The translations under genes and the position numbers were made by a program. Below the pieces are notes generated by a model. That model was not told the origin of the DNA and searched no databases. It worked only from the letters and a program-made list of their open reading frames with translations. Shown piece by piece: positions 2,685 to 8,107 of a DNA stretch of 29,340 bases. Source of the DNA: an uncultured Candidatus Saccharibacteria bacterium (GTDB lineage: Bacteria > Patescibacteriota > Saccharimonadia > Saccharimonadales > UBA4665); assembly GCA_964527845.1 (NCBI GenBank), contig CAZGQU010000002.1, positions 1-29,340 on the forward strand, in the 5' to 3' direction. How positions within the stretch are numbered: the stretch's first letter is position 1; each line of letters begins with the position of its first letter.

Positions 2685-4019
2685 ATGACTTCAAAGTTAC
2701 CTCGTAGCACTCACCAATTTTGTCTCGCGATTATTGTGCTGATTCTGGTACTCGTGCCATTTCATGCGACTCTTACGGTTTGGTTGTCGAGTATAGTTGG
2801 CCATTACACGGCGCTTCGACTATGGAAAGAAGCGCTCCTGCTTGTACTTAGTACAGCGATAGTCTGGCTGGTGATACGAGATAAAACGTTACGTTTGAGG
2901 CTAAGAGAAAATCACTTTTACCGCACGACTTTTTATCTGGCGGGCACATATGTAGTGCTAAGCATAATGCTGGGCGGATTGGCACTTTTACGGCACGATG
3001 TGACTGCCAAAGCACTCGGCTACGGACTCATTAGCAATCTACGGTTTTTGCTATTTTTTGTACTCTGTCTAGTCATTGGAACGTATTTTGGACCATGGCT
3101 GAAACATAACTGGCAAAAGGTCGTACTTTGGCCAGCCGTTTTAGTAATTGGGTTTGGGTTGTTGCAGTTATTTGTACTGCCTGTTGATTTCTTGAAACAT
3201 CTTGGCTATAACACTGGTACCATTACGCCGTATATTGCAGTTGATCAAAAGGTGGAATATGCACGTGTACAGTCAACACTGCGGGGCCCAAACCCTCTAG
3301 GGGCCTATTTAGTGCTTATTGTGCCGGTGTTAGTCGGGTTGTTTGTTGGTCGGCGCAGCCGCTATGTGCGGATTGGCGTCATGCTCTTGGGTGCGGTAAT
3401 TGTACTCTTTGGAACATATTCTCGTAGTGCCTGGATTGGGACAATTATCGCGACTTTAATTGTGATTTGGGCACTAATCCGTTCAGTGCGACTTCGTAAA
3501 ATATTGCTAATCAGCAGTGTCAGTTTATGTATTATTGGCGCGGGCATTACGTATGGGCTACGCAATAATGATTTTGTACAAAACACCCTATTTCACACTG
3601 ATGAGACGTCGCAATCTGCCAGCAGCTCAAACGAAGACCGGGCAAACGCGATTACCGAGGGTATAAAAGATATCGTCCACCAGCCGTTTGGTAAAGGAAC
3701 GGGTACGGCTGGCCCAGCATCGGTGTACAACAATAATAATGTACGGATTGCCGAAAATTATTTTATCCAAATCGGGCAAGAAGTTGGTGTTATTGGGCTA
3801 GGTTTGTTTGTTGCAATATGCGCGGTGGTCGGCAATCAATTATGGCGTGTGAAAAATGGTGATATGCTGGCACTCGCTTTGTTCGCAAGCCTTATCGGGC
3901 TTAGTGCTGTTAATTTGCTGTCCCACGCTTGGGCGGACGACACGATAAGTTATCTCTGGTGGGGGTTGGCTGGGCTTACTATTGGTAGCACTGTCATAAA
4001 AGCTAAATCACGCACATGA
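2685..4019 (+). CDS. O-antigen ligase/Wzy_C family polytopic membrane protein, 444 aa
   Basis: About 11-12 hydrophobic segments; RVQSTLRGPNPLGAYL, TYSRSAWIG, large soluble loop, PFGKGTG, ENYFIQIGQEVGVIG. Confidence 0.8.
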   Translation: MTSKLPRSTHQFCLAIIVLILVLVPFHATLTVWLSSIVGHYTALRLWKEALLLVLSTAIVWLVIRDKTLRLRLRENHFYRTTFYLAGTYVVLSIMLGGLALLRHDVTAKALGYGLISNLRFLLFFVLCLVIGTYFGPWLKHNWQKVVLWPAVLVIGFGLLQLFVLPVDFLKHLGYNTGTITPYIAVDQKVEYARVQSTLRGPNPLGAYLVLIVPVLVGLFVGRRSRYVRIGVMLLGAVIVLFGTYSRSAWIGTIIATLIVIWALIRSVRLRKILLISSVSLCIIGAGITYGLRNNDFVQNTLFHTDETSQSASSSNEDRANAITEGIKDIVHQPFGKGTGTAGPASVYNNNNVRIAENYFIQIGQEVGVIGLGLFVAICAVVGNQLWRVKNGDMLALALFASLIGLSAVNLLSHAWADDTISYLWWGLAGLTIGSTVIKAKSRT

Positions 4020-4420
4020 CCCCCAAGCATAAACCTTTGTATATCCAATTTGCGCAGTATATGGTTGGTGGTGGATTGTGGTTCGTGTCGGGATATATTA
4101 TTTTCGCACTGTGTTATGGCGTACTAGGATGGTCATGGTGGACGGCAAAATTGTTGGCCGATATCGTTGGCTGGACGCTGAACTATCTAGTGCAGCGGTA
4201 CTGGGCGTTTGATAATCCACTGCTTGAAACCCAGGAAATTAAGGTGTCAGCGAAATATGTGCTTTTGATGATTGTGAATACGGCAGTGGACTTTGCGATT
4301 GTTGGCGGCCTGAAATGGCTTGGGTTAACGCCATTTATCGGGCTGTGGGTAGCGGCCAGTTTCTTTACGGTTTGGAACTATGTATGGTACAGATTTTGGG
4401 TTTTCAAACCCAAAAGCTAG
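4016..4420 (+). CDS. GtrA-family small flippase-like membrane protein, 134 aa
   Basis: QFAQYMVGG, LNYLVQRYWAF and WNYVWYRFWVF are the paired GtrA repeats. ATGA overlap with the upstream gene. Confidence 0.85.
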   Translation: MTPKHKPLYIQFAQYMVGGGLWFVSGYIIFALCYGVLGWSWWTAKLLADIVGWTLNYLVQRYWAFDNPLLETQEIKVSAKYVLLMIVNTAVDFAIVGGLKWLGLTPFIGLWVAASFFTVWNYVWYRFWVFKPKS

Positions 4421-4428
4421 CACCACTT

Positions 4429-4574
4429 TAGCCTGCCTGCGAGCAGAGCTCGCAGCGCCGCTAAAGTTTTTGGCGCAGGCTAGCATTTTCTGCTGCGATG
4501 CTCTCGCGGCGTACTATTTGTACGCCTCTGTCCACTTCTCGCAGAGAAATACTAGCCCGCATCCAAATGCTAGC
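4429..4574. other. Highly self-complementary intergenic element
   Basis: Pairs seen: TAGCCTGC 4429-4436/GCAGGCTA 4475-4482; CTGCGAGC 4437-4444/GCTCGCAG 4448-4455; GCTGCGA 4492-4498/TCGCGGC 4504-4510; GGCGTAC 4508-4514/GTACGCC 4520-4526; GCTAGCATTT 4479-4488/AAATGCTAGC 4565-4574. Confidence 0.55.
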
Positions 4575-4617
4575 TTTTACAGTGCAGAAATAATAGTTTA
4601 TTCGATATACTACAAAT

Positions 4618-5097
4618 ATGAACGAAAACCAAACAAAGGCAATTCGACCGAGTAAAAAACAACGAGAACTACTTACTTTTATTGAGGCGTTTATCGGCAA
4701 GCACGGCTACAGCCCGAGTTATAGGGAAATAATGGTCGGTTGTGACTATACCTCTGTCGCCACGGTGGCGCTGCATATTAACAGCTTGATAAAGCGTGGT
4801 CATTTGCGCAAACGCGACCGCAGCGCTCGTTCGCTTGAGGTTGTTAAAGAATCGGCGGATGCGGCAAAACCAACTACCAATCAAGTGCAGCCTGATGAGG
4901 AAAAATGGCTGGTTGAAAAAGTTGAACATTACTTTAAGCAGGCCGAAGCCGCTGCCGAATTGCCACCGCGTATCGTCGAAGAACTAACCGTATTAGTATC
5001 ATCACTCAGAGTGCTTGGGATGGAGGGTGCTGCCCAAAGTTTCGTGCCACGCCTCAGCACGCTGAAGGAGCGCGAAGCGGCTGAACCGACAAGCTAA
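4618..5097 (+). CDS. LexA-type winged-helix DNA-binding protein without the S24 peptidase domain, 159 aa
   Basis: PSKKQRELLTFIEAFIGKHGYSPSYREIM...SVATVALHINSLIKRGHLRKRDRSARSLEV matches the LexA N-domain. No Ala-Gly cleavage motif or Ser/Lys peptidase follows. Confidence 0.8.
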   Translation: MNENQTKAIRPSKKQRELLTFIEAFIGKHGYSPSYREIMVGCDYTSVATVALHINSLIKRGHLRKRDRSARSLEVVKESADAAKPTTNQVQPDEEKWLVEKVEHYFKQAEAAAELPPRIVEELTVLVSSLRVLGMEGAAQSFVPRLSTLKEREAAEPTS

Positions 5098-5111
5098 TTT
5101 ATAGGAGTGAT

Positions 5112-5813
5112 ATGTATCGATTTGGACGTAAGAAAAAACATAAATTACGGAAGTATACACGACTTGGTATAGCTTTAGTGGTTATCGCTGGAGTGGGGGC
5201 GATAGGTATATTTCTGTACGACATACTGTCCGAGAGCGATGAAGCTACCATAAAAACTTCGCAAACCATTACCCGCGAATTCGCACCGCCACCCACCGAG
5301 GAGAAGCTGTTTAACCAGGGTTTGTTTGAATTAAAGTTACCGCCAGATTGGGAGCTAAAAGAACATGTTACTGATCAGTTTAATCGCTACACATGGCAGG
5401 CAGCTAAGAAAAATGCCGATAACCGTTGGCTGGAAATATATGTTGATAGCTTGCCTCTAAGTACCGCGGTGAATCGTATTGTACCAGTGAGCATTGCGAA
5501 TAATGGCATTACTATTGCGGCGCCAATTTCTGAAAACTGCACGACTTTTACTGGTACACAGGGTCCGAATGAAGCGCCTGATAAAGCTGTGCCGGTTATT
5601 ACTACTAAGTGGGAGAATGTGGTATTTGATTGCGACATGGCTAACTATATCCGCAACCTTGTTGGTGTGGGTGTAGAAGGAAATGAAAAGGGGATAACAC
5701 TTACAAGTCCTACCTCTGGCCCGCACAAGTTTTTCATTATTTACACTGACCACAATTATCGGCCAGATTATCAAATCCTAGAAAGGGCGCTTACCAGTTT
5801 TACGCTAAAATAG
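5112..5813 (+). CDS. Single-pass membrane-anchored extracytoplasmic hypothetical protein, 233 aa
   Basis: AGGAG SD; basic N-terminus, one TM helix, soluble domain with two Cys (SENC, FDCD). Confidence 0.8.
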   Translation: MYRFGRKKKHKLRKYTRLGIALVVIAGVGAIGIFLYDILSESDEATIKTSQTITREFAPPPTEEKLFNQGLFELKLPPDWELKEHVTDQFNRYTWQAAKKNADNRWLEIYVDSLPLSTAVNRIVPVSIANNGITIAAPISENCTTFTGTQGPNEAPDKAVPVITTKWENVVFDCDMANYIRNLVGVGVEGNEKGITLTSPTSGPHKFFIIYTDHNYRPDYQILERALTSFTLK

Positions 5814-5859
5814 CGTACAAACGTTACCAAAATTACTATATCTAGCGTAGGTAGTTTGG

Positions 5860-5868
5860 TGCTACACT
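5860..5868 (+). promoter_or_regulatory. Extended -10 promoter element upstream of the riboswitch
   Basis: TGC-TACACT (TGn + TAnnnT) at 5860-5868 predicts a TSS near 5875, just before the aptamer. Confidence 0.5.
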
Positions 5869-5874
5869 ACGGGT

Positions 5875-6060
5875 ACTTTACAAATTATCCGGAATCAGGT
5901 GTAAGTCCTGAGCTGTGCCGCAACTGTAAGGACATGAGACAAACCTAGCGGTTTTTCTCATCGCTCGTCGGCGAAGCCGAGTTTAGCTAAAGCAAAACCG
6001 AGCTCGCTGCTCTTTTCCCTTAGGGAAGGTGAAATGTCTAAGCCAGATACGGAAATAAGT
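5875..6060 (+). ncRNA. Cobalamin (B12) riboswitch aptamer, class-I-like with long P6 extension
   Basis: GGAAT-CAGG-TGTAAGT-CCTG (T-loop P4, 5891-5910), GCTGTGCCGCAACTGTAA (P5/B12 box, 5912-5929), CGCTG...GGGAAGG (6005-6029), AGCCAGATAC (6041-6050). TTATCCG (5885-5891) pairs with CGGAAATAA (6050-6058). Spacing and order match the known consensus. Confidence 0.85.
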
Positions 6061-6131
6061 CTCCCGAGCAGGAGCGAAGGCTGTGTTAAAGCCCCTTCAC
6101 TATGCTCGTAGGTAAGAAGGGAATATTCATG
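6061..6131 (+). promoter_or_regulatory. Putative translational expression platform of the riboswitch
   Basis: Hairpin CGAGCA 6065-6070/TGCTCG 6103-6108 and GAAGG 6076-6080/CCTTC 6094-6098. CCCTTC 6093-6098 is also the exact complement of the SD GAAGGG 6116-6121. Confidence 0.55.
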
Positions 6132-7478
6132 GCCGTTGCAGCTGCAGAAACAAATACATATCTTACTAATCTCGCGCATGCAGAGTCGATCCTTGTGCCA
6201 GAAATGGCAGAAGACGAGTCGGCGCGTTGCCGAGCCGCGCGATTTATTGGTGCTTGCGCTGTAGAAAATACAGAAATACATATTGAAGCTGCAGAGACAA
6301 CTCGACCGATCGAATCTCTTTATGATGCAATCCATAAAGCAAAGGAAGGTGATAAAACAGCTCGAAATCTTGTAAGAACAAATGCGCGCACCGACGTTAT
6401 TGAGCGCACCATAAAGTCTGGACATGTTATGAAAGTTGACTTACATGTTAATGAAGCAGGCAAGATTCAACAGCATGGCCAAAGTATGGAATCTGTACAG
6501 GCAAACAGCCTACGCTTTGCAGCAAATAATTGGCAAATACGTGAACGAACCGAAGCTGAGACGACAAACTCATTCAGGATAGAACAGTTGTATCATTCAG
6601 GTACATTGGAAGAGTATAGCTTTGTAGTATTCTCTTGTGCAGCTGATAATATGAGCCACGAAGCTATGGAGCAGGCTGGGTTTTTTACTGAAACTATGAG
6701 CTGCGCCATACAAGTTACAGCAGCGGAAGAGGATAGACTTACTACAGAGACCGCATTTGTTGCAGGAATAAAGCAATCAGGTGCAGAGCGTACGGATATT
6801 GCTACAGTTATCGCAATCGCGGAAAAGCTTGGGGTTAATTTGCACGGTAAAAGTGCTACTGAAATCTTGAATACACCGCTACTTGTGCCTAATGTGCTTA
6901 TACAAAATGGCGCAATCGATATGGTAAGGCTTTGGGATGAATGCGGAGGGGATACATTCTTTGGTGAAGTCAGGGAAAAGCAGGACTATCTACAATATCG
7001 CAATCAGTGTGAAGAACGTGAACGTATGCTACAGCCCAAAGTTGAATTGATAGTCCAGGAGCTTATTAATGAAGCTCCTTTTATCAGTGATCGGGTGGAA
7101 GCAACTAAACGACTACATAAGATAAGCGGCAAACATATGGTCCAGCAAGCTATTTTTGATACTTCGATTGATTTGCGCGTGTTTGGATCAGTTTCGGCTG
7201 CTCAGATTATGGAAGCTCGTCAATATTTCGAACAAGGCGACCATGAACGTGGCCTAAATAAGATGAACGCGGCAATAAAGAATGATCAATCAAGTTCATG
7301 CCCAGGTGGTGCCTCCGGTGAATCATCGCGTACAGATAATAAAAATGCAGAAGGTGAAAATTCATGTACTTTCGTCTCTAAAAAATGCCCGCATTGTAAA
7401 CGAGAGAACGTACTCACAACAGTCACAAAAACACGAATTACTGGCAAGTGTGGTTGCTCGGTCCGTAAAAAAGCTTGA
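6129..7478 (+). CDS. Hypothetical cytoplasmic protein with C-terminal Cys cluster/Zn ribbon, 449 aa
   Basis: Long ORF (track start 6102); ATG 6129 follows SD AAGAAGGG. C-terminus SSCPGG...CTFVSKKCPHC...GKCGC. No signal peptide or TM segment; no family recognised. Confidence 0.85.
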   Translation: MAVAAAETNTYLTNLAHAESILVPEMAEDESARCRAARFIGACAVENTEIHIEAAETTRPIESLYDAIHKAKEGDKTARNLVRTNARTDVIERTIKSGHVMKVDLHVNEAGKIQQHGQSMESVQANSLRFAANNWQIRERTEAETTNSFRIEQLYHSGTLEEYSFVVFSCAADNMSHEAMEQAGFFTETMSCAIQVTAAEEDRLTTETAFVAGIKQSGAERTDIATVIAIAEKLGVNLHGKSATEILNTPLLVPNVLIQNGAIDMVRLWDECGGDTFFGEVREKQDYLQYRNQCEERERMLQPKVELIVQELINEAPFISDRVEATKRLHKISGKHMVQQAIFDTSIDLRVFGSVSAAQIMEARQYFEQGDHERGLNKMNAAIKNDQSSSCPGGASGESSRTDNKNAEGENSCTFVSKKCPHCKRENVLTTVTKTRITGKCGCSVRKKA

Positions 7479-7501
7479 GCGGCGAGCGTATAATTATTTA
7501 T

Positions 7502-8107
7502 ATGAGAATTGCACGCAAGCCGCGAGTGGGAATTTATGCTGGAACGTTTGATCCTGTACATGCTGGACACATTGGGTTTGCGCTGCAGGCACAGCAAATC
7601 GCCGAACTAGATGAAGTTTGTTTTATGCCCGAGCGTCGGTCGCGTTATAAACCGGGCAGCGAACATTATGTCCATCGGCTGGCCATGATTAGCCAGGCAA
7701 TTCGGCCCTATCCTTCATTCTCGGCGGCTGAATTTGTCGACAAACATTTTACGATTACTCGTACCTTACCTCAGATCAAGCATATTTATGAGGATTGCCG
7801 CCTAGTGATGCTGATGGGAGCTGATGTTTTTGCTGGCCTAGTTGACTGGCCAGATTTCGACCGTTTGTTACGTGAGTGTGAAGTTGTCGTGAGCGTGCGT
7901 TCGGCAAACGAACTAACGAATGCATTGCATGTCATGCAAACTCTCAGCGTGCCCTCCCAGTCTATTTCGCTGATTGATAGTACTGAACCAGATATATCTT
8001 CGACCAAAATCCGCCAGGCACTCAGATTAAATAAGCAGGAAAAGGGGCTGCTACCTAGTGTGGAGCGTTATGCCCGCCAAGAATGGCTTTATGCCAGCTT
8101 GGCTTGA
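7502..8107 (+). CDS. nadD: Nicotinate-nucleotide adenylyltransferase (NadD-like), 201 aa
   Basis: GIYAGTFDPVHAGH (HxGH), LMGAD, ISSTKIR. ATG 7502 preferred over the track's TTG 7475. Confidence 0.8.
   Translation: MRIARKPRVGIYAGTFDPVHAGHIGFALQAQQIAELDEVCFMPERRSRYKPGSEHYVHRLAMISQAIRPYPSFSAAEFVDKHFTITRTLPQIKHIYEDCRLVMLMGADVFAGLVDWPDFDRLLRECEVVVSVRSANELTNALHVMQTLSVPSQSISLIDSTEPDISSTKIRQALRLNKQEKGLLPSVERYARQEWLYASLA

Follow-up and report, generated by a model that had tools for sequence, protein, structure and literature searches.

We analysed a putative cobalamin riboswitch and the gene for a soluble 449-amino-acid (449-aa) protein directly behind it in a 29,340-nt stretch of DNA (the window; contig CAZGQU010000002.1 of assembly GCA_964527845.1). 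The source organism is a Saccharibacteria metagenome-assembled genome (MAG) of 790 kb that is 89.6% complete, which agrees with the original prediction that the window comes from a genome of the candidate phyla radiation (CPR). CPR bacteria, Saccharibacteria among them, live as obligate epibionts on minimal genomes, and little has been learned of how they acquire and use cofactors. The locus comprises a leader with the riboswitch aptamer core, a P13 hairpin, a switch strand and a Shine-Dalgarno (SD) sequence, followed by the open reading frame (ORF) of the 449-aa protein and a nadD-like gene (Table 1). The SD noted in the original prediction is present, and the N-termini of homologs (MAxAA...) agree with the start at ATG 6129. 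A longer in-frame start, ATG 6102, was rejected because it is not preceded by an SD, falls within the switch strand and disagrees with the N-termini of the homologs. The extended -10 box that had also been reported is present as a sequence, but it is only a match to the consensus, and a sigma-70 scan found no -35/-10 pair.

An Rfam scan of the whole window at gathering thresholds detected nothing. When positions 5700-6250 were scanned permissively, RF00174 (Cobalamin) matched the plus strand with 28.5 bits, below its gathering score of 31.5 bits, at an E value of 2e-5 in this 551-nt search and of 6.9e-6 in the whole genome. It was the sole cobalamin-type match in the 790-kb genome, and it spanned model positions 47-167 of 189, leaving an 81-nt insert unaligned. 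The score below the threshold is explained by an insertion of ~117 nt in the P6 loop and by the lack of a P2 arm. Manual mapping and the Rfam alignment located the conserved core nucleotides GGAA...GGUG...CC, GCCGCAAC and the B12 box AGCCAGAUAC. The check with the Rfam cobalamin model that had been proposed along with the original prediction gave a match with a low E value and a score under the gathering threshold. The description of the motif set as 'full' does not hold, because the P2 arm is missing and the P6 extension is an inserted repeat.

Through the protein, 42 homologous loci were taken from reference genomes, and 40 of them were scanned with Rfam. Eighteen of the 40 orthologous loci exceeded the gathering score (eight with RF00174 and ten with RF01689, AdoCbl-II), and these matches were always just 5' of the gene and on its strand. 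A clade covariance model, R1, was built on eight compact leaders and comprised the helices P3-P4-P5-P6 and P13. In all 71 related loci searched, R1 detected a single element per locus, which shared the strand of the gene without exception; the window copy gave two matches because it is split by its insertion. In the R1 alignment of 69 distinct sequences, 98.4% of the cells were standard pairs, and compensatory changes on both sides were seen in 15 of the 18 pairs, with covariation in all four core helices P3-P6. Compensatory cells amounted to 236 against 68 ± 6.5 after shuffling, and none of 500 shuffles reached the observed number. Sliding the 3' partners by 1-3 columns reduced the pairing to 27-45%. 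The alignment was fitted to the model's own structure, which favours pairing; the margin is large. The strong covariation indicates that the element is a genuine structured RNA of the cobalamin clan (CL00101). From these comparisons we regard it as almost certainly a real and conserved cobalamin-type riboswitch, as had been predicted from the window alone.

The riboswitch and the gene are linked in both directions. All 41 homologous loci with upstream sequence carried the element, and its compact forms were located 62-82 nt from the start codon. The co-occurrence test named in the original prediction came out in its favour. For the reverse test, 30 riboswitch hits were drawn from a family-balanced sample of the order, in which 65 of 101 genomes have a hit, each exactly one. 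Nearly every sampled hit was followed within 100 nt by an ORF of 334-510 aa, and a member of the protein family stood behind the riboswitch in 28 of the 30 loci. Pairwise phmmer comparison joined 27 of the 30 to the window protein in one component, and the superfamily profile recognised L061 as the 28th member. L075 was unlinked by similarity but has a Cys-rich tail, and L066 has DUF4430 and DUF6580 behind its riboswitch. Ten further R1 loci of the same order all led to family members, including those of same-family genomes that a narrower profile had missed. It is thus extremely unlikely that the riboswitch is an orphan unrelated to the downstream ORF or was placed before it by chance. Nothing beyond the ORF's lack of known function speaks for such a juxtaposition, whereas every one of the 41 homologous loci has the element, the gene's own SD belongs to the covarying switch helix, and a second, unlinked copy of the gene in the genome G202 has a riboswitch hit of its own. 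The conservation across the order likewise rejects the alternative offered in the original prediction, an orphan riboswitch whose target had been displaced.

Cobalamin riboswitches of every class possess a P3-P6 junction and an L5-L13 kissing loop; in Cbl-I a P2 arm and a large extension on P6 come in addition, and Cbl-IIa lacks both (PMC7367189). The P3-P6 junction and the putative L5-L13 kissing loop of the window leader agree with this published architecture. In most relatives the P6 loop has only 7 nt and the riboswitch is of the compact Cbl-II type; the RF01689 scores of the closest orthologous leaders lie at 36.7-48 bits. Both features of Cbl-IIa, the missing P2 arm and the small P6 loop, were found in eight compact relatives (L002, L004, L007, L009, L013, L035, L036 and L042), whereas the window leader has no P2 arm but carries 117 nt on P6. 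It does not fit Cbl-I either, as RF00174 model positions 1-46 are unmatched and the P6 insert is a repeat element. With class-II riboswitches (RF01689; Cbl-IIa such as env8 HyCbl, PMC7367189) it shares the P3-P6 junction, the core and the B12 box, the absence of a P2 arm, and a downstream P13 hairpin that overlaps the ribosome-binding switch and whose loop can kiss L5. It differs from them in the ~117-nt repeat in the P6 loop and so fits RF00174 better than RF01689. A possible P1 helix would pair about 5873-5878 with 6055-6059. With the class-I riboswitch (RF00174; T. tengcongensis, PDB 4GMA as cited in PMC7367189) it has the core, a large P6 element and a putative L5-L13 kissing loop in common, but it lacks the P2 loop-stem-loop, and its P6 'extension' is a repeat that also occurs at unrelated sites instead of the conserved P7-P11 module.

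The P6 insertion folds as a closed module (dG -39.8 kcal/mol, z -2.2). Its arms recur in the opposite orientation within P6 of L032 and, in L021, L015 and L042, between the gene and nadD, which indicates that a repeat landed in the P6 loop and that it is not a class-I extension. This repeat is rich in hairpins, measures ~100 nt and has arms conserved around GAUGAGAAAAACCGUAGGUUUGUCUCAU and UAAGGGAAAAGAGCAGC. It was found in either orientation in the P6 loops of two riboswitches and, in other Saccharibacteria, between the 449-aa-family gene and nadD, and it resembles a small element of a mobile or repetitive extragenic palindromic (REP)-like kind. The distance from the core to P13 in the window, 136 nt, is the second longest of 66 leaders (range 25-137). 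The repeat might have disabled the riboswitch of the window and made the gene constitutive, the ancestral element having worked as a B12 switch. This would be in line with the occurrence of the same repeat elsewhere in either orientation, with Rfam and R1 scores of the window copy that are among the lowest of all loci, and with the normal docking of L6 into L4 (PMC7367189). We consider it quite improbable, since no damage is seen in any core helix, in L5 or L13 or in the SD/anti-SD strand and since the UAA...AAG flanks of L6 are kept by the insertion's own closing stem. Moreover, P6 inserts of 116-137 nt occur in at least four other lineages (L032, L065, L070 and L096), and class-I riboswitches carry large P6 extensions naturally. 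The window leader is best read as a functional cobalamin riboswitch of the compact class-II type plus an acquired P6 repeat, and the switch probably still works despite the insertion.

The P13 hairpin was detected by a strict pattern in 55 of 73 loci, with the stems CUCC/GGAG (24), CUCU/AGAG (17), CUUC/GAAG (4), UUCC/GGAA (2) and CUUU/AAAG (2), and its loop was CGAGCA in 53 of the 55. In the R1 alignment the P13 helix was 98.2% paired, and all four pairs showed compensatory changes. By manual reading, L5 (UGCCG) can form five pairs with the P13 loop around one bulged A, and L13 is presumed to be its kissing partner. Further downstream, CCCUUC (6093-6098) is complementary to the SD and UGCUCG (6103-6108) to the P13 loop, and GAAGG (6076-6080) can pair with CCUUC (6094-6098). 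The SD and the anti-SD covary between lineages (GAGGG/CCCUC, GCAGG/CCUGC, CAGGGG/CCCCUG). A duplex and overlap test on 57 distinct leaders was used in place of a comparison of minimum free energy (MFE) folds. The SD-pairing duplex had a mean z of -2.76 relative to shuffled SDs, with 45 of the 57 leaders below -1.64, and in 54 of the 57 the site where the P13 loop and 3' strand paired best overlapped the SD-pairing strand. A U-run follows the sequestor helix in many relatives, resembling an intrinsic terminator. The window has no such terminator-like arrangement, and its control is thus probably translational.

The logic of these structures, which form a classic arrangement of three elements, and their covariation make an OFF-switch by SD sequestration likely. 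When a cobamide is bound, L5 would hold the P13 loop and lock P13, and the CCCUUC...UGCUCG strand would be free to pair with the SD GAAGGG, so that translation of the 449-aa gene would be blocked. When B12 is absent, the P13 loop and 3' strand would take the CCCUUC...UGCUCG strand, the SD would be free and the protein would be made.

The 449-aa protein belonged to no Pfam and no NCBIfam family, and a search of its profile against PDB sequences gave nothing meaningful. No significant profile match was found to the known B12-regulated families (BtuB/BtuFCD, ECF-CbrT, BtuM/DUF6580, DUF4430, MetE, NrdAB, NrdDG and Cob/Cbi). We identified at least 229 homologs, all from Saccharibacteria/Saccharimonadales where named, and 378 representative clusters. 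The identity within the superfamily falls to 12-19% inside one order. Hydrophobic segments are absent from all of its members, and the C-terminus of nearly every one is a Cys-rich, ribbon-like tail. E92, C391 (in a [SG][SG]C[GP] motif) and the ribbon cysteine C441 are invariant across the superfamily, with S169, D270, G279 and two further ribbon cysteines (C423 and C443) close to invariant. An AlphaFold2 model from 83 sequences (predicted local distance difference test score, pLDDT, 92; predicted template modelling score, pTM, 0.90) consists of a helical domain, an inserted alpha/beta domain (aa 95-286), a disordered acidic linker and a four-stranded Cys4 ribbon. Foldseek found nothing in the PDB for the whole model (best E 0.35) and only uncharacterised proteins among the AFDB clusters, and no informative match was obtained in Swiss-Prot, in the ESM Atlas by shape or in the language-model atlas. 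VIA-align against 48,161 chains gave for the whole model a best Z of 7.6, on ECF-sigma-like helices, which is within the noise stated for the tool. The alpha/beta domain folded alone with a pLDDT of 95. Its top 50 matches were mostly PAS/LOV/GAF domains whose Z did not exceed 5.1, where the noise level of the tool is ~8, and Foldseek found nothing for it (best E-value 0.06). The original statements that the ORF is of no recognisable family and has neither a transmembrane (TM) segment nor a signal peptide are thus borne out. The RNA is a member of a well-known riboswitch class with an unusual insertion, and the protein family is uncharacterised, with no recognisable fold relatives. A search of the accessible literature returned nothing on cobalamin riboswitches, B12-dependent ribonucleotide reductase (RNR) or this protein in Saccharibacteria, Patescibacteria or CPR.

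The genome was examined for its use of B12. As had been suggested for a check, nrdJ was sought and found; the product, the class-II, B12-dependent RNR, matched NF005122 with 896.7 bits against a cut-off of 859; the gene is cut by a contig end. NrdJ was the sole match in the genome to the RNR large-subunit family PF02867, and NrdD was not found. A CobA/BtuR adenosyltransferase is present (156 bits), which rules out that the 449-aa protein is a missing adenosyltransferase. Searches of the genome found no protein with a B12-binding domain, PduO, FecCD, EcfT/CbiQ, DUF6580, DUF4430 or CobS. That no CobS was found accords with the earlier view that the organism is unlikely to make B12. The organism is best read as a B12 auxotroph that imports a complete cobamide, adenosylates it and uses it for the synthesis of deoxynucleoside triphosphates. 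In a sample of 201 genomes of the class, NrdJ was above the cut-off in 61 and CobA was present in 59, largely the same genomes. The R1 riboswitch was detected in 32 of 151 genomes, including all five of family f1 and nearly all of families f3-f16, and in none of the families without CobA. Of the large family f2, four genomes have NrdJ and CobA, and two of these, G056 and G083, were the only ones in f2 with the riboswitch. B12 as the ligand fits this tracking of NrdJ and CobA by the riboswitch across the class, which is no statistical proof as the sampled genomes are related by descent.

Some riboswitches of the same type precede candidate uptake genes. Vertebrate B12 binders have the domain DUF4430 as well, and DUF6580 proteins are small and polytopic in the membrane. 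G022 has one riboswitch followed by DUF4430, DUF6580 and then a family member in one operon. In other orders (f18 and f22) the same riboswitch type precedes DUF4430 and DUF6580, and in f22 additionally a 450-aa alpha/alpha-toroid protein stands behind the riboswitch. The combination of an alpha/alpha-toroid with DUF4430 mirrors the two-domain make-up of transcobalamin-type binders. In the order of the window, few genomes (6 of 101) have DUF6580. In G219 the riboswitch is on the family member and DUF6580 lies elsewhere, and G202 has two riboswitches, one for the family member and one for DUF4430/DUF6580. Since G022, G202 and G219 have both, a strict replacement of DUF4430/DUF6580 by the 449-aa protein is ruled out. 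From its genomic context, the protein appears to belong to a B12 regulon and sometimes to stand beside uptake genes, neither strictly replacing them nor depending on them. It holds the same position behind the only B12 riboswitch of a B12-auxotroph genome as riboswitch-controlled uptake genes do (BtuFCD, ECF-CbrT and BtuM-like S components; here DUF4430 and DUF6580), but it is soluble and has no similarity to them in sequence or fold.

Riboswitch-driven loci with DUF4430 (secreted or anchored) and DUF6580 (membrane) were observed at L096 (G022:C30), L066/L097 (G202:C18), L098 (G246) and L099 (G194), and further at L087, L089 and L090 (f18) and L092 and L093 (f22). This set is a candidate for a transcobalamin-like system of B12 capture and uptake in Saccharimonadia. 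In f18 and f22, R1-type hits also precede soluble proteins of 700-790 aa that have no Pfam family and are unlinked to the 449-aa superfamily. These proteins may constitute a second set of orphan B12-regulated proteins.

As the 449-aa protein is soluble, it cannot be a transporter, and cytoplasmic capture, protection or processing of cobamide fits best. CobA would adenosylate the imported corrinoid and adenosylcobalamin (AdoCbl) would serve NrdJ, the only detected RNR, while the 449-aa protein would act in the cytoplasm to acquire, hold or process cobamide for CobA/NrdJ under B12 scarcity. Cytoplasmic cobalamin chaperones and processing enzymes such as CblC/MMACHC are known, and BtuM ligates cobalamin via a Cys. 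The role proposed here would be analogous, that of a soluble or Cys-using factor that takes imported cobalamin before adenosylation, and the superfamily does have an invariant Cys; no homology of the 449-aa protein to CblC/MMACHC or BtuM was detected. A cobamide-handling role is tentatively assigned from context. The explanation as a whole, a B12-repressed, SD-sequestering switch that controls a new cobamide-handling factor, is our best one and is held with slightly less than even confidence. It is on the unlikely side, we estimate, that the protein represents a new class of cytoplasmic corrinoid-binding or processing proteins, with a PAS-like pocket and a Cys ligand, that replaces the B12 trafficking machinery missing from CPR. 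The new B12-repressed function envisaged in the original prediction stands insofar as a conserved B12 riboswitch governs an unfamiliar protein; between a B12-independent isozyme and the handling or sensing of cobamide, context leans to handling.

Several observations weigh against this explanation. For the RNA, the window copy is under the Rfam cut-off (28.5 against 31.5 bits for RF00174) and below that of RF01689, too, and the foreign 117-nt insertion in P6 could impair the docking of L4 and L6. L5 and L13 are both invariant, so that covariation cannot probe their pairing. MFE folding did not distinguish the ON and OFF states, the SD being paired at 0.62 both with P13 enforced and in the free fold. 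The sequencing runs that hold the locus are DNA metagenomes only (soil, bioreactor, landfill and activated sludge), with no RNA run listed. For the protein, the absence of a signal peptide and a TM segment means that it is not itself a transporter or an extracellular binder, and no similarity to any corrinoid-binding fold was detectable. Its placement in one operon with uptake genes was seen in G022 only, and G246 and G194 have the DUF4430/DUF6580 pair and no family member. The very fast divergence of its sequence would be unusual for a metabolic enzyme.

This divergence bears on a different explanation, a B12-independent bypass in which the protein supplies deoxyribonucleotides when NrdJ cannot, for example by salvage or conversion, possibly with the NadD-like neighbour. 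OFF-switch logic is used for B12-independent isozymes (metE, nrdAB/nrdDG) in other bacteria, and a bypass would follow the same logic. No B12-dependent enzyme and no RNR other than NrdJ was detected, the neighbouring NadD-like gene is conserved in its place, and the invariant E92 and C391 together with the nearly invariant S169, D270 and G279 are compatible with an active site. However, the protein has no similarity to any RNR, kinase, phosphorylase or deoxyribosyltransferase, its identity of 12-19% within one order contrasts with well-conserved NrdJ, CobA and LexA, and the gene shares an operon with uptake-type genes in G022. We consider a bypass unlikely. That it would be a new enzyme or system, unrelated to known RNR, by which a bacterium with NrdJ only makes or obtains DNA precursors without B12 is very unlikely.

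Fast evolution would fit an interaction module, and the protein may alternatively be a regulator or stress effector of B12 starvation. It would combine a PAS-like sensor with a tethered zinc ribbon that binds protein or nucleic acid, with effects such as slower replication or division or a modulation of NrdJ, CobA or NadD. The weak resemblance of aa 95-286 to PAS/LOV/GAF domains (Z up to 5.1), that of the helical part to ECF-sigma region-2 helices (Z up to 7.6) and a LexA-like regulator in the upstream synteny point in this direction, as does the zinc ribbon on a flexible acidic linker, an arrangement common in regulators. All of the structural matches are, however, within the stated noise of the tool, and no DNA-binding domain was recognised. 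We see a small chance of such a role.

The locus bears on how CPR bacteria live with B12. The synthesis of DNA precursors in the order depends on B12 through NrdJ and CobA, and the genome of the window yielded neither a known B12 transporter nor an assembly gene. One orphan protein family is singled out by the only B12 riboswitch that these genomes have, and the question of B12 handling in CPR thus becomes testable with the RNA, the protein and five conserved residues (E92, C391, S169, D270 and G279). If the protein binds or processes corrinoids, it would bring a new fold to B12 biology; if it bypasses NrdJ, this would be still more surprising. Inducible expression systems are needed for Patescibacteria, and riboswitches have been named as promising candidates (PMC11665869). 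The compact riboswitch could serve as a native inducible switch for Patescibacteria genetics.

Table 1. Features of the riboswitch locus in the window and of related elements in other loci
Feature	Sequence	Position (nt)	Strand	Basis or remark
Candidate extended -10 promoter element TGcTACACT	Window	5860-5868	+	Consensus match in sequence only
Cobalamin riboswitch aptamer core, P3-P4-P5-P6 four-way junction	Window	5888-6053	+	RF00174 match, alignment of relatives, covariation
RF00174 match	Window	5891-6050	+	Permissive scan
P3 UCCG/CGGA	Window	5888-5891 / 6050-6053	+	Alignment to leaders of relatives
P4	Window	5895-5899 / 5907-5911	+	Alignment to leaders of relatives
P5, closing L5 UGCCG	Window	5914-5915 / 5921-5922	+	Alignment to leaders of relatives
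P6 CUG/CAG	Window	5924-5926 / 6044-6046	+	Alignment to leaders of relatives
Insertion of ~117 nt in P6 loop (repeat copy), hairpin-rich, closed by GGAC/GUCU	Window	5927-6043	+	
P13 hairpin CUCC-CGAGCA-GGAG	Window	6061-6074 (stem 6061-6064/6071-6074)	+	Covarying stem
Switch strand CCCUUC...UGCUCG	Window	6093-6108	+	Direct sequence reading
Shine-Dalgarno GAAGGG	Window	6116-6121	+	Sequence; 7 nt 5' of ATG 6129
ORF, 449-aa soluble protein of orphan superfamily	Window	6129-7478	+	ATG start, homologs
Codon of C391	Window	7299-7301		
C-terminal Cys4 zinc-ribbon-like tail (aa ~413-446)	Window	~7365-7466		
TATAAT, perfect	Window	7489-7494		Ends 7 nt before ATG 7502
NadD-like nicotinate/nicotinamide-nucleotide adenylyltransferase	Window	7502-8107	+	TIGR00482, 112.9 bits
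Antisense ORF, 155 aa	Window	5958-6425	-	Overlaps riboswitch and gene start
Repeat copy	L032	2266-2338		
Repeat copy	L021	4117-4189		
Repeat copy	L015	4031-4106		
Repeat copy	L042	4020-4050		
Orphan protein of 700-790 aa	L088	392-2758	+	
Orphan protein of 700-790 aa	L091	249-2528	-	
Orphan protein of 700-790 aa	L094			
Orphan protein of 700-790 aa	L095	352-2454	+	
Mini zinc-ribbon ORF	L021	3952-4116		Between gene and nadD
Mini zinc-ribbon ORF	L015	3834-4031		Between gene and nadD

The antisense ORF covers structured RNA and the inserted repeat, and it is most likely spurious. The nadD-like gene lies 3' of the gene in 35 of 42 loci. NadD is patchy in the class sample (37 of 151 genomes), and it was directly 3' of the riboswitch-gene unit in all 16 same-order genomes that have both. 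The 0.79-Mb genome of the window contains a second NadD-like gene (G000:C5:11510-12073) that scores 126 bits compared with 113 for the window copy. The likely start of nadD is ATG 7502, and the perfect TATAAT before it suggests that nadD may have its own promoter; its closeness to the ATG may point to a leaderless transcript. An overlap of nadD with the 449-aa gene and a translational coupling of the two are weakened as an explanation by this start behind the TATAAT. A complex prediction for the 449-aa protein and its NadD-like neighbour, in which the former was modelled without an alignment and folded poorly, speaks neither for nor against an interaction.

In some relatives, mini zinc-ribbon ORFs of 55-66 aa with the motif CDxCGHYPIxPxHGHFVCPAC...KCCEG are located between the gene and nadD (Table 1); they are absent from the window. 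The synteny is strong and order-wide (window 2685-5813, loci L002-L043): upstream are genes for a Wzy-like ligase, a GtrA-like protein, a protein with a LexA DNA-binding domain and a 233-aa hypothetical protein, followed by the riboswitch, the 449-aa-family gene, nadD, a dsbA-like gene on the opposite strand, a gene for a CBS protein and aspS. The 233-aa hypothetical protein showed a weak match to TIGR03931 (type VII secretion-associated, E 0.0023).

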